Below, piece by piece: positions 1-48,768 of a stretch of 64,000 nucleotides of DNA. How positions within the stretch are numbered: position 1 is the first letter of the stretch; each line of letters starts with the position of its first letter. Location of the stretch: assembly GCA_963714095.1 (NCBI GenBank), contig OY970230.1:660084-724083 (forward strand). The letters are read 5' to 3'. The DNA is from Candidatus Gottesmanbacteria bacterium (GTDB lineage Bacteria > Patescibacteriota > Microgenomatia > UBA10105 > UBA927). The notes beneath the pieces are model-generated. The model saw only the letters and a program-made list of their open reading frames with translations, was not told the DNA's origin and did not search any database. The position numbers and the translations under genes are program-made.

Positions 1-80
1 TATGTTTATTGAGCACGGTGATTATACTTGTTTATGCTCTATGACTCAATCATTGACGGTCTAAACTTTTGGCACGACAC

Positions 81-2221: not shown

Positions 2222-2254
2222 GGATAGGATTATAGCTATTACCGGATCGTTTTT

Positions 2255-3040: not shown

Positions 3041-3083
3041 TTCTGATATAATTCACGTTATTATTCTTTCAATTCCAGCATCA

Positions 3084-3614
3084 ATGCGACTATTATATAC
3101 GATCTTTATATCTCTTTTGTTTTTGATTGCTGCACCATGTATGGTGATAGTGGCGAGCATCGTTTTATTAACCTCAGATGCACCCCTGTTGGAACTGAAG
3201 AAATGTATTGGAAAAGACGGCAAAACGTTTACAGTATATTTGTTTAGAACAGGTAATAATTCCACCGGAAAATTTTTGCATAAAACCGGACTTGATCGTC
3301 TTCCCCAGTTTATTAATGTTATTAAGGGAGATATGATTTTAATCGGTCCCCACCCCATTTCATCAATAAATGTAAAAGAATATAAAGAACATTTCAGTAT
3401 TAGGCAATCTATAAAGCCGGGTATTATTTCTCCGCAGCTACTTCATGGACACGATAAAGAAATATTTACCCGGACACAAACCGATATCGCGTATGTAAAT
3501 CAGAAGTATATATTGACAGATTTATTGCTTTTCAAAGACGCATGCAGATTGTTCTGGATTAATTTTTGGCATAGTTTAGAGGACGCTTTTATACATTCTG
3601 ATAAAAAAAACTAA
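3084..3614 (+). CDS. small phosphoglycosyl (sugar) transferase, PglC/WbaP C-terminal-domain type
   Basis: N-terminal TM helix, then Bac_transf signature LFRTGNN...LDRLPQFINVIKGDMILIGPHP (compare KFRTM...DELPQL.NVL.GDMSLVGPRP). Confidence 0.8.
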   Translation: MRLLYTIFISLLFLIAAPCMVIVASIVLLTSDAPLLELKKCIGKDGKTFTVYLFRTGNNSTGKFLHKTGLDRLPQFINVIKGDMILIGPHPISSINVKEYKEHFSIRQSIKPGIISPQLLHGHDKEIFTRTQTDIAYVNQKYILTDLLLFKDACRLFWINFWHSLEDAFIHSDKKN

Positions 3615-3615
3615 G

Positions 3616-4389
3616 ATGAAAAAACAAATTCCTTATCAGAAATTTATTATTTTAGCGATGCCAAGAACCGGTTCTAATTACCTGTCGTATCTTTTGCATG
3701 ACCATCCGAATGTCATGTCTCTCGGGGAAGCATACTACCCACCGAGTGTTACTGTTAATCCGGGAAATCAATATATGAACAAAAGAAGAAGTTTATTCTA
3801 TTTCCGGAAACTATTTCCAACCCAATTTTTGAAATATTTCATTTTCCGGGATTATCCCCCACATATAAAAGCTGTCGGTTTCAGAGTATTTTATCATTAT
3901 AAAAAGGAAGGAGATCATTTTCAGCATTTTCCTTCTATTAAAAAATATTTAGTAGAACACAAAGAGGTAAAGATAATTCATCTTATACGGAATAATTTAT
4001 TAGAAAATTACGTTTCACTTTTTTTGGCTCTCAAAAGAGATTATTGGTGGACGGTAGGAACTAATCCTTATAAATATGAAAAAATTAAACTTCAATATAA
4101 AGACTGTCTCCGGCACTTTTCTATGTTGACCAGCATGACAAATGAATATAGACAGTTATTTAAATCTCACTCAACAATAGAAGTGTATTATGAAGACCTG
4201 GTGCAGCATAAAAAGAGAGAGCTTGATCGAATTCAAGAATTTTTAGGTATACGGCAAGAAAATTTATCCTGTGCACTTCAGAAACTTAATACCCGCCCAA
4301 TGGAACAGGTCATTTCGAATTTTGAAGCATTAAAAAAAAGGTTTGCCGGTTCTCGATGGATACACTTTTTTGACGAATCACAGGAGTAG
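3616..4389 (+). CDS. sulfotransferase family protein (PAPS-dependent, predicted)
   Basis: N-terminal 5'-PSB-like loop IILAMPRTGSNYLSYLL and 3'-PB-like IIHLIRNNLLENYVSLF; starts 1 nt after the upstream sugar-transferase gene. Confidence 0.5.
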   Translation: MKKQIPYQKFIILAMPRTGSNYLSYLLHDHPNVMSLGEAYYPPSVTVNPGNQYMNKRRSLFYFRKLFPTQFLKYFIFRDYPPHIKAVGFRVFYHYKKEGDHFQHFPSIKKYLVEHKEVKIIHLIRNNLLENYVSLFLALKRDYWWTVGTNPYKYEKIKLQYKDCLRHFSMLTSMTNEYRQLFKSHSTIEVYYEDLVQHKKRELDRIQEFLGIRQENLSCALQKLNTRPMEQVISNFEALKKRFAGSRWIHFFDESQE

Positions 4390-4435
4390 GAAAAAAGAGA
4401 AGGCGGTGTACATATCACCCGTCATCGTTCGGCTA

Positions 4436-5122
4436 CTAGAACGTATCAGGGTAAATTTTGCCATCTTGCATACGAATGAGTGATGTACACATTGTTCGTA
4501 AATAATCTAATTGTTGAGATACCAAAAGAATGGTTGTCCCTTTCGCGAATAACTGATTCATTTTTTTAATACATTTTTGTTGAAACTTACTGTCGCCGAC
4601 AGCCATCCCTTCATCGATAATGAGGATAGTCGGGTTTGCGTGTGCAGCAATGGCAAAACCGAGACGGAGCTTCATGCCGAAGGAGTATCGAAACAATGCT
4701 GTATCGATAAATTGTCTAATATCCGCGAACCGAATAATTGCGTTGAGTTTTTGCGTAATCTCTTTTTGCGACATTCCCAACAGCATGCCGTTAAGATAAA
4801 TATTCTGGACACCGGTTAAATCAGGGTGGAATCCTGCCTCAAGATCGATTAACGATACAACTTTGCCGTATGTTTTTACAACGCCTGACGTAGGATGAGT
4901 AATTCCGGAAACGATTTTAAGCAGGGTCGTTTTCCCTGAGCCATTTAGGCCAATGATACCAACTCTTTCTCCTTTTCGGACTACAAGGTTAATATCTTTC
5001 AGGGCCCAAAATGTTTCATTGGGTCCTTGTACGAATTTTTCAACCAGTGTCGGTTTTTCATGATGGATTTCATACTTTTTTGAAATATTGGTCAGTTGAA
5101 TAACAATATTTTTCATAGCCAA
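4436..5122 (-). CDS. polysaccharide/teichoic-acid export ABC transporter ATP-binding protein (Wzt/TagH-like, short form without C-terminal carbohydrate-binding domain)
   Basis: Walker A GLNGSGKTTLLKIV, Walker B LLIIDEGMAVGD; overlaps the ABC-2 permease gene by 10 nt. Confidence 0.85.
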   Translation of the reverse strand: MAMKNIVIQLTNISKKYEIHHEKPTLVEKFVQGPNETFWALKDINLVVRKGERVGIIGLNGSGKTTLLKIVSGITHPTSGVVKTYGKVVSLIDLEAGFHPDLTGVQNIYLNGMLLGMSQKEITQKLNAIIRFADIRQFIDTALFRYSFGMKLRLGFAIAAHANPTILIIDEGMAVGDSKFQQKCIKKMNQLFAKGTTILLVSQQLDYLRTMCTSLIRMQDGKIYPDTF

Positions 5123-5880
5123 TCATCGAAAGTTTTACTTTCCTTCCGGAATAAAAAGAAACCAAGTACGGTGATTACAATAATGACTACAATATTTGAA
5201 GCAAGCATACCCAAGCCAGGCGCAGGAGCACCCAAGAGTGCATATTGGGCAAGCTGCAAAATTGAAGTGAGCGGGTTCAAGCGCCAGATCCATAACATGC
5301 CCCGTGGTATTTGTGAAAGAGAATACACAATAGGTGTTGCATAAAACCATGGTATAAGGAGTGCCTGAATGAAAAAATTTACATCACGGTATTTAACGTC
5401 AAGAGCAGAAGTTAATATACTTATACCGGCTGTAAATATACACAACAAAACAATGGCAGATACGATATATGGTAATTTATTGAATGACATTTTACCGAGA
5501 AATGCTATCGGGATAAGAAGTAACACGAGGGCAACGAAAAAGTTGATAAAATTAGACAAAATGATAGAAAGCGGAATGACCATGTGTGGAAAAACAGCCT
5601 TTTTAATAAGTGACCGTTCGTTTACTATCGAAGGAGCGCACTTCGTCAGCGAGAGAGAAAAGAAATTCCAGATGAGAAGTCCTGTAAATAGGTAATAATA
5701 ATAATGCTCGATGGGTTCTTTGATAAAAAAAGTAAACACAAACCCGATAACAAGCATTTGAAGAAGCGGATTTGCAACGAGCCATAAAAACCCAAATATT
5801 GTATATTTATACCTCGCACGGAGTTCCTTGTCCGTCATGGACCAGAGGAGTTCAAAAAAATGTTGAATGTTCCTAGTCAT
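5113..5880 (-). CDS. ABC-2 type polysaccharide export permease (Wzm/TagG-like)
   Basis: ELRARYKYTIFGFLWLVANPLL ABC-2 signature, 6 predicted TM segments, coupled to a Wzt-like ATPase. Confidence 0.8.
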   Translation of the reverse strand: MTRNIQHFFELLWSMTDKELRARYKYTIFGFLWLVANPLLQMLVIGFVFTFFIKEPIEHYYYYLFTGLLIWNFFSLSLTKCAPSIVNERSLIKKAVFPHMVIPLSIILSNFINFFVALVLLLIPIAFLGKMSFNKLPYIVSAIVLLCIFTAGISILTSALDVKYRDVNFFIQALLIPWFYATPIVYSLSQIPRGMLWIWRLNPLTSILQLAQYALLGAPAPGLGMLASNIVVIIVITVLGFFLFRKESKTFDDWL

Positions 5881-5936
5881 GCAGGTATTATAACGTATAT
5901 TATTTCTGTATTATTCCAGTTGGTGTCCTTCAAATA

Positions 5937-6896
5937 TTACTGAAAGGCATGCCGGATAATTTTCTCGGCGCAGGAATTTGCGGAAAGTTTATCAGTGTTG
6001 CAGACGATATCTGGATGAGTTGGAATATCGTAATCCGCATCAAAACCCGTGAGTTGTTTGAGCTTGCCCGCTTTTGCTTTTTTATATAATCCTTTTGTAT
6101 CGCGCCGCATTCTTGTTTGAAGCGACGCGGCAATATAGATTTCGATAAACCGTTTCTTCCCTATCATTTTTTTCGCCTCTGACCGGATTTTCCCCTCAGG
6201 AGAAACGAAAGAACAAATAACAAGAATTCCGTGGTCAGCAAACATGGCTGCAAGATATGCCATCCGGCGAATATGGTCTGCCCTGTCCTGTTTACTAAAG
6301 CCCGCCGACTTTGCTAAGGGGCTTGATCGCATCGCGTCTCCGTCAAGGACCTGATACTTAAGATGCGGGAACTGGTTTTTGATAATAGAAACAAGTCTGT
6401 TTGCAATCGTTGTTTTCCCGCTGCATGGACAGCCTGTTAACCATAAGACCATGCCATGATCGAGAATTGATGAGACCTTAGAGGAAAGCATATAGGAAGA
6501 ATCTTTACTTGCAACGCTTTTGGTCCATCCGGGGTCGCCCGCCCGAAGTTTGTTGCGGATTTGAGTTCCGGATATTTGTTTTGTTTCTGCATCAACGTCG
6601 ACTAGTTCCGTTTTGTATCCGACTCCTCTTCCCCAATAAACGCCGTCAATGTCGGGGATAATCATAATTGTTCCTTTTATTTTGTTTTCAACCATCCACG
6701 TTTTAATGTACTGGGCCCGTATACTCGGAGAAAATGCCTCTTTTGCAGTATTCCGAACAAGAATTAACAGCGGTGCACCGGGGTTCTCTTTCAGCTTTTT
6801 TAACATAATCGCAGTATGACCTTTGTGAAACGGCGCCCATCGTCCGATGAACATCATGTGAGGAACGGTGATATCGGCATTTGTGAAGTAAATCAT
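5937..6896 (-). CDS. cysC: fusion protein: N-terminal HxGH nucleotidyltransferase domain + C-terminal adenylylsulfate (APS) kinase
   Basis: C-terminus: P-loop GCPCSGKTT, LDGDAMR (LDGDNxR signature), KGLYKKAKAGKLKQLTGFD (APS kinase signature). N-terminus: FIGRWAPFHKGH (HxGH) and ISGTQIR (ISST-like) nucleotidyltransferase motifs. Confidence 0.75.
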   Translation of the reverse strand: MIYFTNADITVPHMMFIGRWAPFHKGHTAIMLKKLKENPGAPLLILVRNTAKEAFSPSIRAQYIKTWMVENKIKGTIMIIPDIDGVYWGRGVGYKTELVDVDAETKQISGTQIRNKLRAGDPGWTKSVASKDSSYMLSSKVSSILDHGMVLWLTGCPCSGKTTIANRLVSIIKNQFPHLKYQVLDGDAMRSSPLAKSAGFSKQDRADHIRRMAYLAAMFADHGILVICSFVSPEGKIRSEAKKMIGKKRFIEIYIAASLQTRMRRDTKGLYKKAKAGKLKQLTGFDADYDIPTHPDIVCNTDKLSANSCAEKIIRHAFQ

Positions 6897-10532: not shown

Positions 10533-11635
10533 CACGAATACTTTTAGTCAATGTTGAGAGACAGTATACCGAATGCCGTCGTGAAATTGATGCTGCATAT
10601 CATCGGGTGGCGCATTCCGGTTCTTATATACTGGGAGCCGAAGTCACCGCATTTGAACAGGAGTTTGCTCATTACTGCGGAACTGACTACGCAGTAGGCG
10701 TGGCATCGGGATACGATTCATTAATATTGGCACTGCGCGCATTGGGAATAGGAGCGGGCGATGAAGTCATTACGGTATCCCATACGTTTATTTCGACTGT
10801 TTTGGCAATCCTTGCAGTTGGTGCGGTACCTATTTTGGTGGACGTTGACCCCAAGACGCTTCTTATGGATTGCTTGCAAATAAAGAAAAAGATTACATCC
10901 AAAACAAAAGCCATACTTCCGGTGCATCTCTATGGTAATGTCGTGGATATGGATTCTGTTATGGCAATTGCCCGGACCCATCATTTATTTATTGTTGAAG
11001 ATGCGTGCCAATCGCACGGGTCGTTGTATAAAGGGAAACATGCCGGCAGCATTGGTGATATCGGGTGTTTTTCGTTTTACCCGAGTAAAAATTTAGGAGC
11101 CATAGGCGACGGGGGTGTACTCGTTACGAATTCATCCCGCGTCGCAACGCGGGTAAAAATATTGCGGAATGTCGGCCAGCAAAAAAAATATCTGCATGTC
11201 ATCCGGGGATATAACAGCAGGTTAGATGCACTGCAGGCGGCGATTCTTCGCGTGAAACTCCGTCATCTAGATGAGTGGAATAAACAGCGCAGAATGATTG
11301 CCGCCACATATCGCGCAGCGTTTGCGCACCTACCCGTCCGGTGTGTTGAAGTACCAAAAAATGTACAGCCGAATTATCACCAGTTTGTCATAGAACTCCC
11401 CCGTCGGGAAAGGCTTGCGCGATACCTGGCGGAACGCGGTATTGATACCGGAATTCACTATCCTATCCCCATTCATTTACAGCCATGCATGAAATCGTTA
11501 GGGCTCCGGCGCGGGGATCTCCCCGCCACAGAAGCATGTGCCGCACACATCCTCTCCCTTCCGATGTTTCCGCAGCTGACGCCTCATGAGATAAAACGGG
11601 TAACTACGTCGATTCGAACATTTTTTCAGAGATGA
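10517..11635 (+). CDS. DegT/DnrJ/EryC1/StrS family PLP-dependent sugar aminotransferase (WbpE-like)
   Basis: Family-typical blocks LPVHLYGNVVDMDSVMAIARTHHLFIVEDACQSHGS and FSFYPSKNLGAIGDGGVLVT, including the PLP-lysine region. Confidence 0.85.
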   Translation: MGGTMTRILLVNVERQYTECRREIDAAYHRVAHSGSYILGAEVTAFEQEFAHYCGTDYAVGVASGYDSLILALRALGIGAGDEVITVSHTFISTVLAILAVGAVPILVDVDPKTLLMDCLQIKKKITSKTKAILPVHLYGNVVDMDSVMAIARTHHLFIVEDACQSHGSLYKGKHAGSIGDIGCFSFYPSKNLGAIGDGGVLVTNSSRVATRVKILRNVGQQKKYLHVIRGYNSRLDALQAAILRVKLRHLDEWNKQRRMIAATYRAAFAHLPVRCVEVPKNVQPNYHQFVIELPRRERLARYLAERGIDTGIHYPIPIHLQPCMKSLGLRRGDLPATEACAAHILSLPMFPQLTPHEIKRVTTSIRTFFQR

Positions 11636-12228
11636 AGTTTATATATCGGACAGGAATTATTCTCTGTTTTCTTTTAGCAGCTCCTATTATGGGGGGTATC
11701 GCTTTTGTTGTTGCCGTGACCTCGGGTTTTCCTGTTTTTTTCCGCCAGAAGCGGGTCGGAAAAGACGGGAAACCCTTTATCATGTACAAATTCCGCACCA
11801 TGGTCAGAGGCTCTGAGGGGAAGCAGAAAAATTTGGAGAAATTCAACGAAGCGCATGGCCCCGTGTTTAAGCTGTATAATGACCCACGATATACCGGTTT
11901 CGGTAAATTCCTTGCTCACATTGGTTTTGATGAATTGCCCCAGTTGTACAACGTCCTACGGGGCGACATGGCACTTCTGGGACCCCGTCCCCTACCTGTT
12001 GCAGAAGAGCGGAAATTAGCGCCATGGCAAAAAGAGCGGGAGCAAATTCTCCCCGGGATTATTTCCCCCTGGATTTTGGAAGGGTATCACCGGACGACCT
12101 TTGATGCGTGGATGCGAAGTGACATTGCGTATAGAAAAAACAAAAGTTTTTGGTATGATACCCGGCTGTGTGCGCGTATGATCTTCTATATGGTCTCCCT
12201 CATCGGACACGAGATTGCCGGCGGGTGA
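11632..12228 (+). CDS. small phosphoglycosyl (sugar) transferase, PglC-like (second copy)
   Basis: YKFRTMVRGSE...FDELPQLYNVLRGDMALLGPRPLPVAE is the canonical Bac_transf motif; N-terminal TM; 4-nt overlap with the aminotransferase. Confidence 0.85.
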   Translation: MKFIYRTGIILCFLLAAPIMGGIAFVVAVTSGFPVFFRQKRVGKDGKPFIMYKFRTMVRGSEGKQKNLEKFNEAHGPVFKLYNDPRYTGFGKFLAHIGFDELPQLYNVLRGDMALLGPRPLPVAEERKLAPWQKEREQILPGIISPWILEGYHRTTFDAWMRSDIAYRKNKSFWYDTRLCARMIFYMVSLIGHEIAGG

Positions 12229-12912: not shown

Positions 12913-15174
12913 GTGTATAATTGCTACTATAGGGTTATGTCGCCAATGCCGGAAATAAAATCACCACCTCCACCCGTTATTTGGGAAGCACAGTCAATCA
13001 ATGATATCTTCGGGGATCATGCAAAGCGGTCCAAAAGTAAGGTATCTCAAGGCTCTCCATATTCGCATGCCCAACATATTCATGAAACAATCGCGGCACA
13101 GCCATCTCAGCAATTGGAACAACCGCGGGTAGAATTTTACGGCTCGTCTCATAGCGGAAAAGGGCATACACTGTATGATGTCGGACAAACCCATCCCGCA
13201 CCGGAGGAACATTTTGTTGATACTGCAGCACATGAAAATGCATTGCAGATTGCGATAGCTGCACACCCATCTCTTCATGAGGCAATACAGACATTGCACG
13301 CTGTCGATTCTCACATTGATGCCGATGTGGGGTACTCCGCAGGGAAACTCATTGAAACGCTTCAAACTCAAGAAGGCAGCACTGCCTTTATGGATGTTGT
13401 TTCTCATTTAACCAACGGTGAGCGTGATGGTGTTGCAAAGCTTGAGAGAGCGGCGCTTGCCCAGATTGGACTGGACACGGTATTTGATCACGTACGCGAG
13501 ACATCTCCGAAAGGTACCATAAAAGCGATCAAAGAAACCGCCGAGCAGATTGTACAAACTATGCAATCTGATATATCTGTTTCTGAGGCGCAACAGGGAA
13601 CAGAACGTCTTGTCAATAATCTGCAAAGTTCCCATACGGCTACTGAAAATGCTGAATTGTCTGCTATTCTGGCTGCCCTTGTTGCGGCTGAAGCGGTTTC
13701 GGTTAAAAAGCTTGGCTTGAAAAATACGATTGTCATCAATTCGTTGATAGCGCTGGCCGGGTGCAGCGCGGGTCCCGGTGTCCTGTCACAGGAACGGACG
13801 GCTACTGCACGCCCGCTTCTTACGGAATCAGCGATGGACTTAACCCTGACCGGTAATTTTTCCCATCTGGACGTCAGCAGTCCAACGAGCGCCATGCAAA
13901 TGATGGATACGCTGAAGAATTTTTATGAAACCCAGCGTCCGACCGCGGATTTTTCAACGGTAACCCTGTCCTATATTCACATACAGAATCCAAACAACGG
14001 GTTTGGGTGGGAGGTAGCCGTCAGTTCTCCTGTTGCTACTCTAAGTACGACAGGTGAACCAATAGCTTTTATGACATATCGGAAGACGGACGGAACAATT
14101 GACATTATGACCGTCATTTGGACAGAGCAGGAACAGGAGCCCGGCGGCGTCGTGGGTTCGACACTGCGGACATTAGTGCCTGAAGGGGATAATATAGTGA
14201 AGGGGAATTTAGTGTTTGGTCTGAGTGCATTGCCTGGCGGGGGGACAGAGGTGACATTGTCCAATCCGGATAATCCGCAAGCCCCTCCCCAATTATTGAC
14301 GACAGAAAAACAGTATGCGCCTGTTGATCTTTTGCAGGCCATCGGGATAGTGCCGGCATCCGCCAAAGCAGCGGGGTTGGAATCGTCCCCGATAAGTGCA
14401 GTCCCGTCGGCGGATATGCTGGCGGCCACGTCCACTATTACTGCGACCTTGGAGCCAAGCATTACGCCCACGGCGACCCTGGAGCCAACCGCAACTCCGG
14501 AAGCGCTCGGCGGCGCCCAAGTAGCATATTTGTGGGAGAGTAATCAAGAACTCACATCACTGCCACAAAGCGTTATAGATCTTATTTCTTCGGATCCTAC
14601 GAATGTTAATAAGCCTATTGCCCCTGATTTTTGGAGTAATTATCCTACGGGTCTTTTTTATAGTGACGGAGCCACACCTTTTCCGTGGGGTAAATTTTTT
14701 GTCGAAAAATTCGGGAATCACATGCTCGTGGATATCCCTGTTTTATTTAGAGGCACTTTAGAAATACCCAGACCGGGGGGGGAAATCATCTTATTATTTG
14801 TTTTTGAGACTCCTGCGGCAGGCGGAACAAATGTGATAGTCTCACTGATGCATGACGGGCCTAATATGGGTTCTGTAGAAATAGATCATCTCAATAACGG
14901 CATACCTTCCAGTTGGGGTGGCACATGGGATAGTCCTGTAGATAGTTCAACTATTAGTCCAGGATTTACATTTACAGGTGTTGGCAACGGCAGAGAGATC
15001 GCTAATTTACTTAAAGCATATCAAGGCAAGACGATTATTGCCAGATTTGTAACAGACGAGGGCACTACTACCGCTTCCTGCCTTGAGAACGTCGTTCAAG
15101 GTAAGCTTTTGGGCCAGAATAGTCAGAAGATAGATGTTATTAACCCGCTTGGTGGCGTAATGCTTCCCAAATAA
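12913..15174 (+). CDS. large hypothetical protein (753 aa) with short TATLEP repeats; no recognised domain
   Basis: Long uninterrupted ORF; internal TPTATLEP/TATLEPTATPEA repeats; no N-terminal signal peptide seen from the listed start. Confidence 0.45.
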   Translation: MYNCYYRVMSPMPEIKSPPPPVIWEAQSINDIFGDHAKRSKSKVSQGSPYSHAQHIHETIAAQPSQQLEQPRVEFYGSSHSGKGHTLYDVGQTHPAPEEHFVDTAAHENALQIAIAAHPSLHEAIQTLHAVDSHIDADVGYSAGKLIETLQTQEGSTAFMDVVSHLTNGERDGVAKLERAALAQIGLDTVFDHVRETSPKGTIKAIKETAEQIVQTMQSDISVSEAQQGTERLVNNLQSSHTATENAELSAILAALVAAEAVSVKKLGLKNTIVINSLIALAGCSAGPGVLSQERTATARPLLTESAMDLTLTGNFSHLDVSSPTSAMQMMDTLKNFYETQRPTADFSTVTLSYIHIQNPNNGFGWEVAVSSPVATLSTTGEPIAFMTYRKTDGTIDIMTVIWTEQEQEPGGVVGSTLRTLVPEGDNIVKGNLVFGLSALPGGGTEVTLSNPDNPQAPPQLLTTEKQYAPVDLLQAIGIVPASAKAAGLESSPISAVPSADMLAATSTITATLEPSITPTATLEPTATPEALGGAQVAYLWESNQELTSLPQSVIDLISSDPTNVNKPIAPDFWSNYPTGLFYSDGATPFPWGKFFVEKFGNHMLVDIPVLFRGTLEIPRPGGEIILLFVFETPAAGGTNVIVSLMHDGPNMGSVEIDHLNNGIPSSWGGTWDSPVDSSTISPGFTFTGVGNGREIANLLKAYQGKTIIARFVTDEGTTTASCLENVVQGKLLGQNSQKIDVINPLGGVMLPK

Positions 15175-15236: not shown

Positions 15237-16973
15237 ATGTCATGCGGTTTGCCTCTAAAAAGCGTAACGAAAAAGTTGCTGAGGGTATTCTTTTTTATAG
15301 GTGTAGCTGTAGTTGCTGTGGCTATAGTTGGAAATAAGAATCCTGCTGCTGCTGATGTTTGTTACATGAACCTTGTGATTAGTGAACACCGATGTGTAGG
15401 GGTTATTCAAACTTGCACTTATTGGGAGTCAGCGTGCGTAGGACAGGAAGGGGGTGGCGACGGGAGTACAGCTGCCCAAGCAAAAGCTAACTGTGCAATC
15501 GGTTGTAGTGGTGTTTACGGGGTATATTGTGGAGATGCTTATTGTGTATCATATACAAATCCGACAGATTGTGAGGCACAGACTTTTACTGCAGCATGCG
15601 GATATAATCCTGTTACTAATGATTGTTCAACTGCAGTACAAATAGTAAGCTGCGAGGGTCAGGCGTCTGGTACTCCTTGCTCGGAAACTTCAACACCCTC
15701 AAAACGTGATTGTTGGGGGCCGGGACCGACGGACACACCCACAAACACACCCGCGCCAGGTACACCCACAGCTACACCCAAACCACCCACTCCCACCCCT
15801 ACGGCTACACCCATCCCTACGGCTACACCCATCCCTACGGCTACCCCCACTCCCACAGCCACTCCCACACCGGTACCCGGTACAATACGTGCGCGGGCGG
15901 TGCAGGTGAGCGACACGGATACCTCATGTGCCGCGGTAACCACGTCAAGTACCGGAATTGGCGGCGCTGTGCATCAGTTTACGCCGTCCTCCGCAAGCCA
16001 ACCCGCGCCCCAGACACAAAGCGGAAGCACGTATGTTACGTTTAACAGTTTGGTCCCGGGAATCTATACGATAAATTCCCAGACTCCTTCCCAGTATGTA
16101 TTTGCACGCGCATGCTGGTCCGACTCATTCAGCGGTATTTCGGGAGAAGGATATACTCAAACGCTGGGAGCGGGGGATACCGTTACCTGGAATTTGGGAT
16201 ATACGCTTGGCGTTGCATGGGTTCAGGCCCAGGGAGGCGATGTGAACGCATCGGGAACTCTGCAGTCGTTTGTGCCGGTGGGCGCTACCCCGCGGGCATT
16301 TATCCTGGACGGAACAGCGGGTGGGTATCCCGGAGTGGCTACGTACGGAACGGATTATACTTTTGACAGTAGCGGTGTCACAAATGGACAGGCGTGGGTG
16401 TCCAGTAAAAATTGGCTGGTGAAAGATACCACAACCGACACGAATTTTTACCAGCTTCTATACCAACAGTTCGGCTCACCGACGACGGCGGATTTTTCCG
16501 GCGGAAAGACGGTGAACGCACAATCAGAATTTTTCAATTTACCCCACCCCTCTCCGTATTATGTCACCGGCGCATTGACGGTTGACGGATCTGACTGGTC
16601 AGTTGGAGCAGGACAAACGATCGTTGTTTTCGTCAACGGAAATCTGACAATAAAAAGAAATATTAATATTACAGGAAGCGGATTTGCCGCGTTTATCGTT
16701 AACGGGAATATTACTGTTGATCCGTCTGTGGGGTCGCTTGAGGGCATCTACATCACGTCTCCCTCCGGTATATTTGATACCGGTACCGGAGCCGTTCGGC
16801 TTGTGGGGACCGGTTCGTTTGTTGCCGGTAATTTTACCCTGCAGCGCGATGTGGGCGATCTCTTAAATCCCACCACGTCATCGGAACTCTTTATCTATAA
16901 TCCGCAGCTGCTTCTGACGATGCCCGACCAAATGAAACAACTTTCAGTGCAATGGCAGGAAATTGCGCCGTAA
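15237..16973 (+). CDS. secreted/surface protein: signal anchor, Cys-rich module, Pro/Thr-repeat linker, C-terminal Gly/Thr-rich beta-rich domain
   Basis: N-terminal hydrophobic segment LLRVFFFIGVAVVAVAIVG-AAA; about 16 Cys in ~120 aa; (TPTA/TPIPTA)n linker; no catalytic motif. Confidence 0.55.
   Translation: MSCGLPLKSVTKKLLRVFFFIGVAVVAVAIVGNKNPAAADVCYMNLVISEHRCVGVIQTCTYWESACVGQEGGGDGSTAAQAKANCAIGCSGVYGVYCGDAYCVSYTNPTDCEAQTFTAACGYNPVTNDCSTAVQIVSCEGQASGTPCSETSTPSKRDCWGPGPTDTPTNTPAPGTPTATPKPPTPTPTATPIPTATPIPTATPTPTATPTPVPGTIRARAVQVSDTDTSCAAVTTSSTGIGGAVHQFTPSSASQPAPQTQSGSTYVTFNSLVPGIYTINSQTPSQYVFARACWSDSFSGISGEGYTQTLGAGDTVTWNLGYTLGVAWVQAQGGDVNASGTLQSFVPVGATPRAFILDGTAGGYPGVATYGTDYTFDSSGVTNGQAWVSSKNWLVKDTTTDTNFYQLLYQQFGSPTTADFSGGKTVNAQSEFFNLPHPSPYYVTGALTVDGSDWSVGAGQTIVVFVNGNLTIKRNINITGSGFAAFIVNGNITVDPSVGSLEGIYITSPSGIFDTGTGAVRLVGTGSFVAGNFTLQRDVGDLLNPTTSSELFIYNPQLLLTMPDQMKQLSVQWQEIAP
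15770..15880. repeat. in-frame tandem nucleotide repeat (approx. 18-24 nt units) encoding a PT-rich linker
   Basis: cctacggctacacccatc is repeated consecutively; the antisense frame gives the artefactual GVGVAVG ORF 15659..15943. Confidence 0.7.
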
Positions 16974-17037
16974 ACCAGCCCCGCGAATTATTGTCAATTT
17001 GACTTCATCCCAAGAAGGGTATATAGGGTTATAATGA

Positions 17038-19251
17038 ATGGCAAATCCCGCTGGAACAACCTTTTCTTCGCTTTTTAAAAAATACCGTTTACGTTCGGAG
17101 TTGGCAACGCTTTCCGAATTCGGCCGGATGCTTGCGGATGAAGGCGTGGTATATGAAGACAGCCTGTTTTACCGGTGGCAAAATAATACGCGCGTCCCCA
17201 GATATAGGAATATCCTTCTTGCAGTTATCCGTGTTTTTATAAAACGCGGAGGGATTGTGTCAATTGAACAGGCAAATGCCCTTCTTGCCAGTACGGGGCA
17301 ACGGGATTTGACTCAGGAAGACGTGGTAGCGCTTCCGTTTCTTCTCACAACATCACCGTTTACCGTTCCCGCATTATCCCCCGATTTTATCGGACGCACA
17401 AAGCCAATAAAAGAAATATGCTGGTCGCTTTTAAACAGGCAGACGGTACTGCTTCACGGTATGGCGGGAGTCGGCAAAACAATGCTGGCTGTCTATTGCG
17501 GACATTTTTTGAAAAAGACGTTCCGTGACGGCGTTTTGTGGTACCGGTTTGATATTCGATCGGCAGAAGACATTTTTAATGATATTGCGAGATCGTACGG
17601 AGAGGACATTTCCGGCATACGGGATGTACGGGTAAAAGCACAGCGCATACGCGATCTATTGGCTCAAAAAGACGTGCTTCTCATCTTGGATAACGTTGAC
17701 GATTTTACCCACATAGATCTTTTTATGAATGAATCTTCTAGGATTCCCCTCCTCCTCACATCCAAGCGATGTCCGGAGCTCGGCGCACTCGTCGCGCCGC
17801 TGAGAATTGACACGTTTACCCCCACGGAAGTGAACGAATTAGCCCGGCGTATTTTAGGCCGTGCGTACGTTATGAGTCACGAGACGAGCATCCAACGTGT
17901 TGCGCGCGAGACCGGCAGTTTGCCGTTGGCTCTCATGGTTATTTTTAAACACGCCACACGTTCGCCTCACGCGCTCAATTGTTTTATGCATCGGTTTCAT
18001 TATGCAGATCTTCAGTTCGGCAATCTTCACTATGATGACAAAAATCTTGAATTATCACTGCAGATTTCGTTTCAGTCGCTTTCCACAGAGCTTCGAAAAA
18101 CATGTCTGTCGGTTGGCATGTTTTCCGGAAGTGATTTTTCTGCCGACGCGGTGGCTGCGGCAACGAAAGAATCAAAAGCTACGGTTGTCAAACGCCTGAA
18201 ACAACTCGAATCCCTTTCTTTTTTGGAGAAATCACTGGCGCACAGGTACCGGGTTCACCCGTTCATCATGTCTTTTCTTGCGCGAAAGACCCGGGGCGAC
18301 GCACCGTATAGGGAACTCGCACGGTATTTTATCCGGTTTTTGGGAAAGGGAGGGCGGGGAAACCGTACATTTTATCCGCAGATTGAAGAAGAGCTGGATA
18401 CCATTATCGGTGTGTTTTTGCGGTGCAAAGAACTCGGAGCGAGGGAAGAAATGATTGAACTGTGGGAATATCTTGGAATTTTTTTGTGGGATACGGGACG
18501 CTGGCACGAGGTAGATACATACGGACATATTGTTTGTGCTGTGTGCCGGCGTCAAAAAAATCAGCGGGCGCTGGCATCGTGTCTTATACGGGAACTTTGT
18601 TGGCTGCAGTACTGGCGGGGAGATTTGAAATCCGCTTTGTCCTCGGTAGAGTCAGGAATGAGAATAGTGGAGCGTCTGAAAGATGCGCCGCTTATTGCAT
18701 TGGCACGGATCCGTTTAGGAAAAATTTATGAAAGTCAGAAGCGGTGTCATCTGGCGCTTGTGTGTTTTACGCATGCCTTTGAATACTTTAGCAGTGAGCG
18801 TAACCAAGAGAAACAGGGTGATATATTAACCTACATGGGAGAAACATATTGGTTGATGGGAAACAGTACAAAAGCGAAATTTTATCTTCACCGCGCATTA
18901 CATATCGTGCGCGCAATTGGTGATATTCCGCAGGAAATTACCATCGTTTCACGTCTGGGCTGTATTGCCCTTCAGGAGAAACATTTCAGGAATGCGATCT
19001 CACAATTCAGGAAAAGCTTGTTATTGGAAAAAACATCAGGTCGCAGGGTCGGTGATACGTTTTGGAACAATCTCGCACTCGGTTTAACGTACGAGGCGTT
19101 GGGGAATCACAGGCAGGCCCGGGATAAATTTCAATTGGCAAAGGACGAAATGATAGTGGTAGGTTTTAATGAACAAATTCTGCAGGTTGATGTTTTCCCG
19201 ATGATATTCAAAAATGAACTCAGGCATTGCGGATTTTTATTTACTGCGTAA
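17038..19251 (+). CDS. STAND NTPase: N-terminal XRE-type HTH, NB-ARC ATPase, C-terminal TPR repeats
   Basis: HTH-like LATLSEFGRMLADEG...SLFYRWQNNTRVP; P-loop LLHGMAGVGKTMLA; Walker B VLLILDNVDD; GLPL-like GSLPLAL; C-terminal TPR-like helices (GKIYESQKR..., GETYWLMGNSTKAKFYLHRAL). Confidence 0.7.
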   Translation: MANPAGTTFSSLFKKYRLRSELATLSEFGRMLADEGVVYEDSLFYRWQNNTRVPRYRNILLAVIRVFIKRGGIVSIEQANALLASTGQRDLTQEDVVALPFLLTTSPFTVPALSPDFIGRTKPIKEICWSLLNRQTVLLHGMAGVGKTMLAVYCGHFLKKTFRDGVLWYRFDIRSAEDIFNDIARSYGEDISGIRDVRVKAQRIRDLLAQKDVLLILDNVDDFTHIDLFMNESSRIPLLLTSKRCPELGALVAPLRIDTFTPTEVNELARRILGRAYVMSHETSIQRVARETGSLPLALMVIFKHATRSPHALNCFMHRFHYADLQFGNLHYDDKNLELSLQISFQSLSTELRKTCLSVGMFSGSDFSADAVAAATKESKATVVKRLKQLESLSFLEKSLAHRYRVHPFIMSFLARKTRGDAPYRELARYFIRFLGKGGRGNRTFYPQIEEELDTIIGVFLRCKELGAREEMIELWEYLGIFLWDTGRWHEVDTYGHIVCAVCRRQKNQRALASCLIRELCWLQYWRGDLKSALSSVESGMRIVERLKDAPLIALARIRLGKIYESQKRCHLALVCFTHAFEYFSSERNQEKQGDILTYMGETYWLMGNSTKAKFYLHRALHIVRAIGDIPQEITIVSRLGCIALQEKHFRNAISQFRKSLLLEKTSGRRVGDTFWNNLALGLTYEALGNHRQARDKFQLAKDEMIVVGFNEQILQVDVFPMIFKNELRHCGFLFTA

Positions 19252-19275: not shown

Positions 19276-19818
19276 ATGACGAAAGAACGGGTAGAACATG
19301 TTATATTGGCAGACACCGATATTACTCTTGTATGCGGCGATATTACGGCGCTTTCGGTTGATGCCATTGTCAATGCGGCTGACCCGAAGCTGTTGGGCGG
19401 CAAAGGCGTAGACGGGGCTATTCATAGAGCGGCAGGACCTAAACTCCTGGAAGAATGCAGAACATTAGGAGGCTGTGATACCGGGGAAGCAAAACTTACC
19501 CATGGGTATAATTTGCCGGCTCGATATGTTATTCAGACAGTCGGTCCTGTTTACGGTACTGAAAACGGGAGGGAGCCGGAGCTTCTGGCTTCCTGTTATA
19601 GAAAGAGTCTGGATCTTGCGAAACAGCATGATATTAAAACCATAGCCTTTCCATCGATTTCTACCGGTTACTTCGGGTATCCGATACGGGAAGCAGTCAA
19701 AATTGTTCGTAAAGCCATTGCTGACTATCTCCAACAGGAACACTCTTTTCAAAAAATACTATTTGTTTTGTATACTCCGGCTGATTTTGCGGTCTATCAA
19801 AGAGAATTTGCTTCTTAA
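19276..19818 (+). CDS. macro domain protein (ADP-ribose / O-acetyl-ADP-ribose processing, MacroD/YmdB-like)
   Basis: DAIVNAAD...LGGKGVDGAIHRAAGP...VIQTVGPVY macro-domain motifs. Confidence 0.85.
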   Translation: MTKERVEHVILADTDITLVCGDITALSVDAIVNAADPKLLGGKGVDGAIHRAAGPKLLEECRTLGGCDTGEAKLTHGYNLPARYVIQTVGPVYGTENGREPELLASCYRKSLDLAKQHDIKTIAFPSISTGYFGYPIREAVKIVRKAIADYLQQEHSFQKILFVLYTPADFAVYQREFAS

Positions 19819-20306
19819 ACTCCGATATTTCTCTTCAGTAATGATAACGCAGCAGCATGAAAAGACTCATGGGCTGAAGACATACAGAGATTTTTTATAA
19901 GAGATATGCGATATCCCCTATCGAACGCGTCGTATGCTGTTGCCAATACGCAACAATCCGTGTCAATGCCGCAGAGACAAAGTTTTTGAATACCGTGATT
20001 TTTTAAGAGTGTGTTCACGCCGGGGACTTTTAATGCCGAATATACATGTTTAGAAACGAGTATTCCCTGCGTAAGCACCGGTTGCAGGTCGCGGGCAATG
20101 TCCGTATCTTCCGGGGTCATACTTTTTTTCCACCCAGGGAGGCGATATACACTGGATGTCGGGGTATTGACGAAGTGCGTAAAAATAATCATATCAAATT
20201 TTTCCTTATTGTTTTGGATATACCGGCAGATTTTTCCCGGCAGCGATGCGGTGCGTGTATTGATAAAAAAGTTTTGTACGTCGATAACGAGCAGTGCCTG
20301 TTTCAT
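19815..20306 (-). CDS. isochorismatase-family cysteine hydrolase, nicotinamidase (PncA)-like
   Basis: ALLVIDVQNFF N-terminus; catalytic-Cys region LCLCGIDTDCCVLATAYDA. Confidence 0.7.
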   Translation of the reverse strand: MKQALLVIDVQNFFINTRTASLPGKICRYIQNNKEKFDMIIFTHFVNTPTSSVYRLPGWKKSMTPEDTDIARDLQPVLTQGILVSKHVYSALKVPGVNTLLKNHGIQKLCLCGIDTDCCVLATAYDAFDRGYRISLIKNLCMSSAHESFHAAALSLLKRNIGV

Positions 20307-20460
20307 GTTTTCGATAATACACGTTTACCATTCTTCGGTCAAAAATTGTGTGCCGTAGCCGCGTTTCAGAGACTGTCATTTTTTCTGACACTATTGTCAT
20401 AGACAGGGAACGTCTCATTTTTTATAGTAACGCCGAAACCATACATGTGCGGTCGGGTTT

Positions 20461-20772
20461 ATGGATATACAACGTATGCGTATTAAGAGCGTATTAAGCC
20501 AACGAAATTTGTATCTTTTTCCGACTCAGGCAGCTGCCAGAGACGTATTTTCCGATACCGCATTTGACTATATGCACGGCTACGTTTCTCCCTCGTACTT
20601 TTATCTTCTTGTGAGGGAGCTTTTATTCATAAATGCCCGGGCAAAACAACCGTTCCTTAAAAACAAGCACCTTGTCAGAGAAATGTATATGGCGTTGCGC
20701 CTTAGCGTTTCCGGAACTCCGGCTGCGGAACGCATGAAGATACGCAATCAGCTTATCCACTACGCGTTTTAA
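20461..20772 (+). CDS. hypothetical small protein
   Basis: ORF only; no recognised motif. Confidence 0.3.
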   Translation: MDIQRMRIKSVLSQRNLYLFPTQAAARDVFSDTAFDYMHGYVSPSYFYLLVRELLFINARAKQPFLKNKHLVREMYMALRLSVSGTPAAERMKIRNQLIHYAF

Positions 20773-20819: not shown

Positions 20820-20957
20820 ATGCCCAAACGCGTCTATCAGCCGAAAAAGAAAAAACGGATCCGAACCCACGGATTCCGTCTGCGGATGCGGACAATCGGC
20901 GGCCGTAAGGTTTTGAAGCACCGCCGCCTGGTAGGGCGCCGCCGCGTAAGCCTGTAA
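20820..20957 (+). CDS. rpmH: 50S ribosomal protein L34 (45 aa; absent from the ORF track because it is under 60 aa)
   Basis: Manual translation [45 protein letters not shown] matches the L34 consensus (K.R..HGFR.RM.T..GR.VL..RR..GR..L); directly upstream of rnpA as in most bacteria. Confidence 0.9.
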
Positions 20958-20962
20958 ACCAC

Positions 20963-21286
20963 ATGCTTTCTTCCGATCATAGATTGCCCAAAGAAGACAT
21001 CGCTCCGATTTTGCGACGCGGTACTCACGTCAGAAATGAGATCATCGAACTGATTTACAAAAAAACAAATACTGATAACGTCTCTCGCTTCGCATTTATC
21101 GTTTCTACAAAAATTGATAAACGCGCAACGAGCCGTAACCGTATGCGCAGAACCATGAGTGAATCTGTGCGGCATCTGATATCTGCCCTTCCTCCGATCG
21201 ACGGCATATTTGTTGCGAAAAAGAATTTCGCAGATCTTTCTCAGATCGAGGTAGAAAAAATCATCCACGCGCTTCTCCGGTTATGA
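20963..21286 (+). CDS. rnpA: ribonuclease P protein component
   Basis: RnpA-like basic protein ([22 protein letters not shown]) in the conserved position after rpmH. Confidence 0.8.
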
Positions 21287-21522
21287 AAAAATTTATTTTA
21301 AAATCCATCCGTTTTTACCAGCGGTATATTTCGTTGGATACCGGCTTACTGCATGCCCTATTCCCTATTAGGGTGTGCCGGTTTACGCCGACATGCAGCG
21401 AGTATACCTATCAGGCGATCGAGCGCTATGGTATACTATACGGATCGCAGCTAGGGTTGGCGCGCATTATCCGCTGCCACCCGTGGAACCGCGGCGGATA
21501 CGATCCCGTTCCAAAAAAATAA
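21283..21522 (+). CDS. yidD: membrane protein insertion efficiency factor YidD
   Basis: YQ..IS......C.F.PTCSEY...AI...G...G..L...RI.RCHP motif set. Confidence 0.85.
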
Positions 21523-21541
21523 TACAATTATTTTTTAGTCT

Positions 21542-22357
21542 ATGAATAATCCGAATCTTTGGAATCAAATTCTTGTCTGGCCGATTTTAAACGTGCTGAT
21601 TGCCCTCTATAAACTTTTTGAAAGTTTGCACGTGCCGGGACCCCTGGGATTTGCGGTCATCGGGCTTACGCTCATCATCAGGCTTCTTCTCTACCCTCTT
21701 ATGGCTGCACAACTTAGGAGTGCCAAAAAAATGGCGGCGATCAAGCCGCACATGGACGCGCTTGCCATCAAACACAAAGGCGACAAAAAAGCGCTTCAGG
21801 AAGCACAGATGGCTCTTTACAAAGAACACGGCGTCAACCCGGCCGCGGGTTGCCTCCCCCTCCTTATCCAAATGCCCGTCCTCATTGCGCTCTATAATGT
21901 GTTTTATCAGGTATTAAATGCAGGAAATATTGCTAAGGTGGTAACGGATATAAATAAAATCGTGTATCTGCCGGCGTTTAAAATTAGCAACCTGGACCTT
22001 AATTTTTTCGGCGTCGATCTTGCGATAAAACCGTCGCAATTTCAGAAATACGGATACGTGTTCCTTCTGGTTCCTTTAATTACGGCAGCCTTGCAATGGT
22101 GGCAGACAAAATTGATGATGGCGGCCATACCCAAAGCGCCGGTAGCGGACAAAGCGCTCGTAAAACCAGCAGGCGGAAAGAAGGATGAAAAACCACCGGA
22201 GGATATGGCAGCGGACATGCAAAAACAGATGGCAATTCTTACTCCCATTATGTTCGGCTATTTTGCCTATACGTTTCCATTAGGTCTTGCACTGTACTGG
22301 AATGTCTTCGGTCTTTTTGGTATCATGCAGCAGATTGCGATTAATAAGGAAACATAA
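21542..22357 (+). CDS. yidC: membrane protein insertase YidC/Oxa1 (short form)
   Basis: YPLMAAQLRSAKKMAAIKPHM...GCLPLLIQMPVLIALYNV core motifs; multiple TM helices. Confidence 0.85.
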   Translation: MNNPNLWNQILVWPILNVLIALYKLFESLHVPGPLGFAVIGLTLIIRLLLYPLMAAQLRSAKKMAAIKPHMDALAIKHKGDKKALQEAQMALYKEHGVNPAAGCLPLLIQMPVLIALYNVFYQVLNAGNIAKVVTDINKIVYLPAFKISNLDLNFFGVDLAIKPSQFQKYGYVFLLVPLITAALQWWQTKLMMAAIPKAPVADKALVKPAGGKKDEKPPEDMAADMQKQMAILTPIMFGYFAYTFPLGLALYWNVFGLFGIMQQIAINKET

Positions 22358-22359
22358 AT

Positions 22360-22815
22360 ATGGAACAGATAGACCAAGTCAAACAGATTACGGAAGATTT
22401 ACTCAAGCGCCTGGGTATATCCGGAGATGTCGCGGTTGACGTGGACGAAACCGGCGCATTCCGGGTACATATCGAAACGGAAGAAACGGGACTCCTCATC
22501 GGATTCCATGGGAAAACGCTGGAAAGTTTCCAGATTATTTTAGGACTGTTGGTTTCCAAAGAATTGACGGCTTGGGTGAAGGTGTACGTGAATGTGGGCG
22601 ACTACCGCGAAAAGCGCGAAGAAGCGCTCATGCTTATGGCCCAGCATGCCGCAGAGCGCGCACTTGCCGCCGGGCGTCCCATAGAGCTCCCTCATTTATC
22701 TGCGTCGGAACGGCGTGTTATTCATCTGACGCTTGCCGGTGACGAACGGGTGGAAACGGAATCTGTCGGCGAAGGCATGTCCCGCACCCTGCTCGTGAAA
22801 CCAAAGGCAATTTAA
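22360..22815 (+). CDS. jag: Jag/KhpB-type RNA-binding protein (KH + R3H)
   Basis: C-terminal R3H motif LPHLSASERRVIHLTLAGD; conserved position after yidC. Confidence 0.75.
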   Translation: MEQIDQVKQITEDLLKRLGISGDVAVDVDETGAFRVHIETEETGLLIGFHGKTLESFQIILGLLVSKELTAWVKVYVNVGDYREKREEALMLMAQHAAERALAAGRPIELPHLSASERRVIHLTLAGDERVETESVGEGMSRTLLVKPKAI

Positions 22816-48633: not shown

Positions 48634-48739
48634 TTAGTACAGAGTACACTATTAATTGGGGCGATTCCAGGCCTTATCATCCGTTTCATTTTTAGAGGTC
48701 AAACAGTAGCTATTCTATAGGCGTTTTTCGTTAGATACC

Positions 48740-48768
48740 AGGTTCTAAGTTCTTGGAGTCCCCGCAAC
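48740..48768. repeat. 29-nt intergenic motif AGGTTCTAAGTTCTTG-N4-CCCCGCAAC (copy B), upstream of minus-strand gene 47635..48633
   Basis: See copy A. Confidence 0.7.

Follow-up and report, generated by a model that had tools for sequence, protein, structure and literature searches.

A candidate HTH/NB-ARC/TPR transcription factor and its conserved hydrolase partner in a Gottesmanbacteria genome

The described systems closest to the gene analyzed here are regulators that join a DNA-binding domain to a NOD (nucleotide-binding oligomerization domain) and to a sensor made of tetratricopeptide repeats (TPRs). In Streptomyces AfsR, the NOD and the TPRs inhibit the DNA-binding domain, and ATP relieves this inhibition (PMC10936776). 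In the archaeon Pyrococcus horikoshii, the predicted transcription factor PH0952 has its DNA-binding domain at the N-terminus, together with a NOD and a TPR sensor, and its crystal form is autoinhibited, with the TPR sensor as the inhibitor (PMC6468293). We analyzed a gene of comparable layout in a 64,000 nucleotide (nt) stretch of a Candidatus Gottesmanbacteria genome (contig OY970230.1, positions 660,084 to 724,083; referred to as the window). It encodes a 737 amino acid (aa) protein of the STAND class (signal transduction ATPases that have numerous domains), with a helix-turn-helix (HTH) domain, an NB-ARC module, and TPRs, and it is followed by a macro-domain gene and a convergent gene for an isochorismatase-family hydrolase. 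Most probably, the protein is a transcription factor that senses a signal and not an antiviral sensor. To our knowledge, almost nothing is known about gene regulation in the Candidate Phyla Radiation (CPR, or Patescibacteria), and these bacteria are usually described as poor in regulators.

AfsR (8k60/8jke) is the sole STAND protein matched by the window protein in a PDB sequence search (E 5e-18, residues 102-414). Both have an N-terminal DNA-binding domain, then an NB-ARC NOD, then a TPR sensor, and Walker A, Walker B, the GxP motif, and the switch histidine are conserved. There is also a partial match to NCBIfam NF053617 (E 2e-30, model positions 271-607), although the score of 105.4 bits is below the AfsR equivalog cut-off of 1430. 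AfsR carries a SARP domain (an OmpR-type winged helix with BTAD), whereas the window protein has an XRE-like five-helix HTH and matches neither PF00486 nor PF03704. The switch motif is His-Asp in AfsR and His-Pro in the window protein, the host is an actinomycete in one case and a CPR bacterium in the other, and the direct-repeat afs boxes differ from the palindrome and third half-site of the candidate operator described below.

PH0952 (6mfv) is the best structural match to the full-length AlphaFold model (E 6e-15, TM-score 0.49/0.55, 691 columns), and the model appears to resemble its closed resting form. Apaf-1, CED-4, and the NB-ARCs of plant NLR proteins follow in the structural list. PH0952 differs in having an ArsR-like winged HTH, and its sequence identity to the window protein is about 15%. 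The same three-part architecture, in the same order, is found in actinobacterial XRE-HTH/NB-ARC/TPR proteins (P0021, P0029, and P0035; also in other phyla). These are 20-23% identical to the window protein over 70-80% of the length, and the N-termini align in register, including an LPxxxxxFxGR linker. Their HTHs match Pfam HTH_3/HTH_31, whereas the window HTH does not, and the CPR family has its own upstream motif and far wider sensor fusions. Members of this group are annotated as transcriptional regulators with an XRE-family HTH domain or as TPR repeat proteins, and we know of no characterized one. In MalT the HTH is C-terminal and of LuxR type, while in the window protein it is N-terminal and GerE is unmatched; TPR_MalT scores 23.7 bits, below its cut-off of 45. 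An earlier note on this DNA, made from the sequence alone, had suggested an AfsR/MalT-type regulator as one possibility. The AfsR-like NOD bears out part of this, and the features of MalT are unmatched.

Switch module and N-terminal domain

The 737-codon open reading frame (ORF) is uninterrupted, and it is a genuine gene for an HTH/NB-ARC/TPR switch protein, a STAND-type regulator in an unusual lineage. Pfam NB-ARC matches residues 124-345 at 45.2 bits (cut-off 23.5), which places the protein among the NB-ARC STAND proteins. The complete NB-ARC with its P-loop, Walker B, and GxP motifs, as read in the earlier note, is all present (Table 1), and a FIGR motif occurs at residues 117-120, shortly ahead of the P-loop. 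Residues R120, G141, G144, G146, K147, D218, P296, and H407 are the same in the protein and in all 27 homologues from CPR bacteria and actinobacteria that were aligned with it, and the ATPase switch therefore looks functional. At the MHD-type switch position, His407 is followed by Pro, and Asp is absent throughout the CPR family; a His-Asp switch is described in STAND relatives (bioRxiv 10.64898/2026.09.02.748808).

The C-terminal TPRs of the earlier note were also recovered. TPR_12 scores 53.2 bits (cut-off 30.1), TPR_2, TPR_1, and TPR_8 are likewise above their Pfam cut-offs (residues 525-700), and there are about seven TPR pairs. The full-length AlphaFold model has a predicted local distance difference test (pLDDT) value of 87.4 and a predicted template modeling score of 0.72. 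It contains a small helical N-domain, an alpha/beta nucleotide-binding domain, helical and winged-helix domains, and, at residues 422-708, about 15 helices arranged in pairs.

Pfam has no family for residues 1-120, even at E<=10 (HTH_3, HTH_31, and HTH_19 are unmatched), and NCBIfam and PADLOC scans of the N-terminus found neither an HTH nor an effector family. Therefore, we used structure and profile-profile methods. The AlphaFold 2 (AF2) model of residues 1-120 is an all-helical bundle (pLDDT 74.6) with helices at 9-19, 25-34, 41-48, 57-69, and 76-85, and the N-terminal domain also has a predicted helix at 93-98. In a Foldseek search against the PDB, lambda-repressor-type HTHs make up most of the top matches and all of those with a probability of at least 0.9; EspR, P22 c2, SinR, CapH, and DdrO match with probabilities of 0.96-0.99 and root-mean-square deviations of 1.2-2.5 Å over 60-66 residues. 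Comparison by hhalign of nine CPR N-termini with nine XRE N-termini of actinobacterial XRE-NB-ARC-TPR proteins gives a probability of 65% and E 6e-5, and the module aligns in register over its full extent. When the N-terminal alignment was used as a profile against the PDB, the only matches were a spurious one to a designed TPR and a weak POU-specific one (E 0.12). From the models and profile comparisons, we accept an XRE-like (five-helix, lambda-repressor-like) fold for this domain, outside the Pfam XRE families. The XRE-like HTH that had been proposed earlier thus holds as a predicted fold and finds no counterpart among Pfam HTH families.

Across 219 distinct domains, S42, F44, W47, Q48, R52, P54, and R57 are conserved in at least 80%. 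Conserved basic or polar residues (S42, H/R46, Q48, K49, R52, and R57) are located on the presumed recognition helix and the loop that follows it.

Searching exhaustively with a profile of the N-terminal domain alone, we recovered 364 clusters at 50% identity (269 at E<=1e-10), nearly all of them from Microgenomates, and the HTH is N-terminal in every member. The domain is combined with NB-ARC-TPR, with NB-ARC and multiple transmembrane helices (multiTM), with multiTM alone, with a transmembrane (TM) segment and dCache_1, with SBP_bac_3, with TPRs alone, or with an MmyB-like ligand-binding domain. One multiTM member matches HisKA_7TM. P0013 (proteins and loci compared here are designated by P and L numbers) has only its first 100 residues in common with the STAND protein and continues into a multi-pass membrane domain; in P0006 and P0009, HTH and NB-ARC are followed by a membrane domain in place of the TPRs. 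A conserved N-terminal HTH with interchangeable sensor modules is a signature of one-component signal transduction, and the sensor swapping in this family is typical of a one-component output domain. To the earlier note, a regulatory ATPase of this size was surprising for a minimal genome. It belongs to an HTH family with a large, lineage-specific expansion in Microgenomates, often with tandem paralogues, and its presence here is therefore not unexpected. The reduced-genome context itself is plausible, since the identical protein is encoded on a 1.09-Mb contig and the closest named relatives of the STAND protein are from Gottesmanbacteria and Roizmanbacteria.

Operator-like motif and hydrolase partner

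Comparison of orthologue upstream regions yields a conserved 26-bp motif, aATGACA-N4-TGTCAG-gAAAnn-TGACA, which is laid out as a 14-bp palindrome with a third half-site that is offset from the first by 21 bp, or two helical turns. We counted 64 copies of the core TGACA-N4-TGTCA in 1.10 Mb of fetched DNA, and 0-3 for other spacings and the inverted order. In the non-redundant DNA (984 kb) we found 37, 25, and 31 copies with 0, 1, and 2 mismatches, compared with 0, 0, and 3 after shuffling. Counting matches with at most 2 of 15 mismatches within 180 nt, the motif is upstream of 48 of the 87 family genes that have enough upstream sequence (about 55%) versus 17 of 2000 random positions (0.85%). 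Its end is mostly 7-30 nt ahead of the domain start, and 7-51 nt before position 1 of the hidden Markov model across subfamilies. A metagenome scan with the motif only (20 fixed bases, protein information unused) returned 29 stretches; in 12-13 of these the motif is immediately upstream of a family-HTH gene, one copy precedes a pyruvoyl arginine decarboxylase gene, and several are 36-48 nt from divergent ORFs. Palindromes of 14 bp are classical targets of dimeric XRE-type HTHs, as in the 434 and P22 operators. The simplest interpretation of this correlation is that an invariant reading head, the HTH, is matched to an invariant site.

In the orthologues of L005, L017, L026, L031, and L117, the third half-site is TTGACA, a TAnnnT box follows 17 nt downstream, and the gap between this -10 and the ATG is about 8 nt; such promoters would yield leaderless or near-leaderless transcripts. 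The motif of L084 is displaced into the spacer, and its third half-site is not at -35. A fixed -10 spacing of 17 nt after the third half-site was rejected as a general rule, as it is found in just 10 of the 48 motif-bearing genes. A generic promoter element was also rejected, given the single copy in 64 kb and the frequency at random positions. An RNA hairpin formed by the TGACA/TGTCA palindrome was considered as well. Changes in one arm are uncompensated in the other, and we therefore read the element as DNA; Rfam gives only tRNAs in the window.

The sole perfect copy in the window (the chance expectation of 1.2 refers to matches with up to 3 mismatches) is 67 nt upstream of the hydrolase ATG and 31 nt upstream of a TTGACC-17-TATTAT promoter-like site. 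In the 80% identical orthologue L001, the motif is also ahead of the hydrolase gene, at the same position. In the window, the site has its center at about -70 to -86 relative to the hydrolase promoter, a placement more typical of activators; the regulation could be of either sign. Ahead of the window STAND gene, no stretch within 180 nt comes closer to the motif than 6 of 15 mismatches, and all that remains is TTGTCAATTTGACT (a TTGACT -35-like element). The sequence at 16991-17007 is possibly a degenerate remnant of the family motif, and in L005, L017, L026, L084, and L117 the motif is present ahead of the orthologous STAND gene.

The -10 box of the hydrolase promoter-like site ends 7 nt before the ATG, and the transcript looks leaderless. 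Here (20306-20342) and at the STAND genes of L005, L017, L084, and L117, the -10-like boxes are 7-8 nt before the ATG and there is no Shine-Dalgarno sequence, which suggests leaderless transcripts. L004/L026 is an exception, as an upstream GTG with AGGAGG ahead of it may be the start codon there.

The STAND gene with the convergent hydrolase gene directly 3' is found in seven distinct loci, with STAND identities of 41-80%: the window, P0002 (80%), P0003/L026 (46%), P0004 (48%), L017 (46%, a Roizmanbacteria bin), P0158/L084 (41%), and L117 (45%). The two genes sometimes overlap by 9-25 nt, and all further neighbors vary among these loci. The pairing ends at lower STAND identity, being absent in L031 (39%) and P0005 (38%). 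Hydrolase homologues at 52-53% identity in L115 and L116 have topA or gatC at the 3' end and no STAND gene, and the pair is therefore restricted to one subclade. The earlier note would have given up its proposal for a gene with different neighbors in every related genome and a plain DNA-binding HTH conserved with SARP-type regulators. We find a neighborhood that is not sporadic, with the convergent hydrolase kept in all seven loci, and an HTH of plain DNA-binding type that is XRE rather than SARP.

Hydrolase orthologues (L001, L004/L026, L005, L017, L084, and L117) are 55-84% identical, and the catalytic triad D9/K86/C118-119 is invariant in them. The metal ligands of P. horikoshii PncA (D52, H54, and H71) align to F45, N47, and S62, and the score against the NCBIfam PncA model PRK11609 is 37.2 bits (cut-off 174). 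Judged by these residues and scores, the enzyme is a cysteine amidohydrolase and not a canonical nicotinamidase. The macro gene begins 24 nt after the STAND stop codon and is probably co-transcribed with it; its product matches NCBIfam NF001664 (O-acetyl-ADP-ribose deacetylase) at 210.2 bits (cut-off 200). Thus, of the macro/nicotinamidase pair that had been placed downstream of the STAND gene, the macro gene is real and the nicotinamidase assignment falls with the missing metal ligands.

Five of the seven pair loci lack the macro gene. It occurs in the window/P0002 lineage, where the STAND gene is on one side of it and the hydrolase gene on the other, and in L117, where a macro gene of 42% identity is on the opposite side of the hydrolase gene and divergent from it. 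The existence of two gene orders suggests that macro and hydrolase genes are linked by more than a single accident, but the sample is only two. We regard the hydrolase as a conserved genomic partner of the regulator and its likely regulated target.

Regulatory reading and its alternatives

We favor, with somewhat more confidence than doubt, a reading in which the STAND protein is an ATP-switched, ligand-sensing one-component transcription factor acting on the 26-bp operator. The output domain would be the divergent XRE/lambda-repressor-like HTH at the N-terminus, the NB-ARC would serve as an ADP/ATP switch, and the C-terminal TPR array would be both sensor and autoinhibitor. By analogy with AfsR, MalT, and PH0952, an ADP-bound, TPR-clamped closed monomer would keep the HTH inactive at rest. 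A ligand on the TPRs, together with ATP binding, would open the NOD and allow oligomerization, and the oligomer may present two or three HTHs to the three half-sites of the operator. Its location directly upstream of the regulator's own gene in most family members implies autoregulation; in the window and the 80% orthologue it would instead act on the convergent hydrolase gene. Where the third half-site is the -35, occupancy could repress, or it could take the place of sigma contacts in the manner of AfsR at the afs box. The analysis shows the domain composition, intact nucleotide-binding motifs, N-domain fold, architectures, motif-gene association, and pair conservation described above; motif binding by the HTH, activation or repression, switching by ATP, and the ligand are inferred.

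Several observations weigh against this reading. About 45% of the family genes, the window STAND gene among them, have no motif, and some motif copies precede other genes or no ORF. The link between HTH and motif is correlational, and the site could be bound by some other factor; paralogues with and without an upstream motif have the same recognition helix, and this comparison therefore cannot link the HTH to the motif. No motif is directed at the hydrolase gene in L004/L026, L005, L017, L084, and L117 (in L017 the motif in the shared intergenic region is directed at a divergent paralogue), and regulator and hydrolase are convergent, unlike the divergent or co-oriented genes of classical regulator-target pairs. 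The N-terminal domain is silent in Pfam, its Foldseek E-values are just 0.4-1 (expected at such a size), and the MHD-like motif is His-Pro, not His-Asp.

Some of these points would also fit a transcription factor that binds other sites, with the motif bound by another regulator or a sigma factor that coordinates the family and a few other genes; the adjacency of the hydrolase would then reflect co-expression or shared physiology. To this we assign a modest chance. It would explain a recognition helix that is the same in motif-positive and motif-negative genes and a window STAND gene that has no motif, and it is consistent with motif copies that precede unrelated regulators (a REC response regulator and MmyB-like XRE proteins) and with the subset whose third half-site makes a perfect TTGACA -35, spaced 17 nt from a -10 box. 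However, about half of the copies found by the motif alone directly precede genes of one rare family, and the palindrome is of the kind classical for dimeric XRE-type HTHs. The motif-to-gene distance varies from 7 to 51 nt between subfamilies, and the third half-site of L084 is in the spacer and not at -35; both argue against a fixed sigma-recognition element. We consider it very improbable that the STAND protein is an ATP-driven scaffold on a partner such as the hydrolase, with the XRE-like fold used for protein-protein contacts as in RodZ. The N-terminal domain has no sequence-level match to DNA-binding HTH profiles, and in P0013 and relatives it is fused directly to multi-pass membrane domains, which would anchor it at the membrane, but membrane-tethered one-component DNA-binding regulators are well known. 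In addition, a family-specific palindromic motif is best explained by DNA binding, and the conserved basic or polar residues are on the presumed recognition helix and the following loop.

The earlier note had raised Avs-like sensing and phage defense. In such a conflict module, the TPRs would sense an invader protein and the HTH would be a non-enzymatic DNA-targeting effector, or the macro and hydrolase proteins would act on NAD- or ADP-ribose-derived molecules. In the NTPases of conflict systems, the effector position can indeed be taken by an HTH domain (PMC7159879). Avs proteins likewise have a STAND ATPase core and C-terminal TPR-like sensor repeats, and Avs3 (rank 14) and Avs5 (rank 48) are among the distant structural matches. 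The STAND, hydrolase, and macro genes are together in two gene orders (the window, and L117 at 45% STAND identity), and one distant family member is beside type IV secretion system (T4SS) and integrase genes. Against this, PADLOC has no significant match to the STAND, macro, or hydrolase proteins (only a generic TPR match at E 1.4e-5 and chance-level matches), and we found no nuclease, SIR2, TIR, or protease effector at the N-terminus, which is an HTH-like helical domain. AfsR and PH0952, the closest relatives by sequence and structure, are transcription regulators, and the HTH is common to Cache, SBP, 7TM, and TPR-only one-component architectures. A search of 2.9 million viral contigs returned zero relatives. 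Most pair loci have no macro gene, the hydrolase has no nicotinamidase metal site, and the locus is among housekeeping genes rather than in a defense island. A defense function is thus quite improbable, and the earlier suggestion is not upheld.

Returning to the transcription factor reading, it is possible, and we propose it tentatively, that the family is a Microgenomates regulator superfamily in which one near-invariant XRE-like HTH and one 26-bp operator are wired to many sensors, with the window member controlling the hydrolase and sometimes the macro enzyme. If so, many sensory inputs would converge on the same DNA sites in a hub-type network suited to tiny genomes, and the window member might respond to an NAD- or ADP-ribose-derived metabolite. 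The family provides a testable system with a defined DNA motif, a DNA-binding domain outside the profile libraries, and modular sensors. The predicted targets are the regulators' own genes, the isochorismatase-like hydrolase, and, in the membrane-sensor branch, arginine decarboxylase, EamA, and DAO genes. For STAND biology, it would add a non-actinobacterial lineage that uses NLR-like switches for transcription rather than immunity, and it warns that a bacterial NB-ARC-TPR protein is not automatically an antiviral sensor.

Family members and genomic surroundings

Table 1. Positions of the STAND gene, its domains and motifs, and neighboring features in the window
Feature	Position in window	Strand	Basis
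HTH/NB-ARC/TPR STAND gene, 737 aa	17038..19251 (stop codon included)	+	ORF list, Pfam, AlphaFold model
N-terminal helical domain, residues 8-98; predicted lambda-repressor/XRE-like HTH	17059..17331	+	AF2, Foldseek, hhalign
Presumed recognition helix DSLFYRWQ, residues 41-48	17158-17181	+	
NB-ARC nucleotide-binding oligomerization module, residues 110-418	17365..18291	+	Pfam, motifs, AfsR 8k60 match
Walker A GMAGVGKT, residues 141-148	17458-17481	+	
Walker B LLILDN(VDD), residues 214-219	17677-17694	+	
GSLPLAL (GxP/GLPL motif), residues 293-299	17914-17934	+	
MHD-like RVHP, residues 405-408	18250-18261	+	
Arm and TPR sensor region, residues 422-737, about 15 paired helices	18301..19248	+	Pfam TPR, model
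Macro-domain gene, 180 aa, YmdB/MacroD-type	19276..19818	+	Pfam Macro E 2e-44
Isochorismatase-family cysteine hydrolase gene, 163 aa	19815..20306	-	Pfam PF00857 E 1.5e-26
Promoter-like TTGACC-17-TATTAT of the hydrolase gene	20314..20342	-	Consensus match only, 10 of 12
Family motif TGACAATAGTGTCAGAAAAAATGACA (TGACA-N4-TGTCA-N7-TGACA), candidate operator	20374..20399	-	Motif search
TTGTCAATTTGACTTCA upstream of the STAND gene, possible degenerate motif remnant	16991..17007	+	6/15 mismatches

In a full-length search, close relatives of the STAND protein are found only in CPR bins (Gottesmanbacteria, Microgenomates, and Saccharimonadales), and beyond these are XRE- or SARP-NB-ARC-TPR proteins at about 20-25% identity. 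A survey that scanned one genome per species gave 71 loci. Those with informative titles are nearly all from Roizman-, Gottesman-, Levy-, or Daviesbacteria or other Patescibacteria, and at 22 loci a second family member is at most three genes away. Tandem pairs of full STAND genes occur in L012 (1706-5888) and L014 (5704-10136), and L023 and L029 have several HTH-TM or HTH-other genes in succession. In L017, a 296 aa paralogue (10822-11712) is divergent from the isochorismatase gene, which places the hydrolase between two family regulators. About 30 records with family members are titled "uncultured Gammaproteobacteria bacterium" (binchicken/SRP co-assembly metagenome-assembled genomes, with a guanine-cytosine (GC) content of 0.30-0.46); these titles are probably placeholder mislabels, as the GC and gene content are Patescibacteria-like.

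A literature search found no mention of NB-ARC together with Patescibacteria. As far as the searched libraries and literature show, what is new at the family level is an HTH domain without annotation, the range of sensors joined to it, the shared operator-like motif, and the conserved partnership with the hydrolase, with or without a macro gene.

The HTH-NB-ARC-multiTM branch (L025, L042, L056, L068, L073, L097, L098, and L011) has recurrent neighbors of its own: PvlArgDC, an EamA transporter, an LPG_synthase_C-like protein, a DAO-type FAD oxidoreductase, and an Orn/Arg decarboxylase. The family motif is directly upstream of PvlArgDC (pyruvoyl arginine decarboxylase) in L097 and 42 nt from the DAO gene in L098. 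These neighbors may form a polyamine or arginine-related regulon. A methyltransferase of the NNMT/PNMT/TEMT family (PF01234) is encoded near P0004 (L005 696-1475, - strand) and P0009 (L011 12632-13540, + strand); PF01234 is rare in bacteria, and the family name covers nicotinamide N-methyltransferase. P0008 (29% identical) in L008 (10232-18216) is beside VirB4/TraG-like, TraC-like, and PrgI-like genes, a RepB-like regulator, and a tyrosine integrase, and therefore at least one member of the family is carried by a mobile element.

In the window, the locus adjoins the conserved rpmH-rnpA-yidD-yidC-jag (KH/R3H) genes at 20821-22815, followed by Wzy_C and polysaccharide-synthesis genes, and it is stably syntenic with the 80% relative. 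Its context is housekeeping and cell envelope, not a defense island. A 103 aa ORF (20461-20772, + strand), divergent from the hydrolase gene, shares the intergenic region that bears the motif; it is 82% conserved in L001 only, is similar to nothing else fetched, and may or may not be a gene. We considered a decayed family paralogue, as in L017, and found no similarity.

Directly upstream of the STAND gene are two ORFs on the + strand, at 12913-15174 (753 aa) and 15237-16973 (578 aa), neither with a significant Pfam match. In the 578 aa ORF, a hydrophobic segment at the N-terminus is accompanied by a region rich in Cys and by a Pro/Thr-rich linker of PTPTATP repeats. Both are conserved in the 80% relative (L001-L003) and not at the other orthologue loci, and their products are probably secreted or surface proteins. 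The GC content drops to 0.36-0.39 at positions 1-6000 and 48001-50000 of the window, compared with about 0.45-0.50 elsewhere, and these segments may hold horizontally acquired or compositionally distinct genes.

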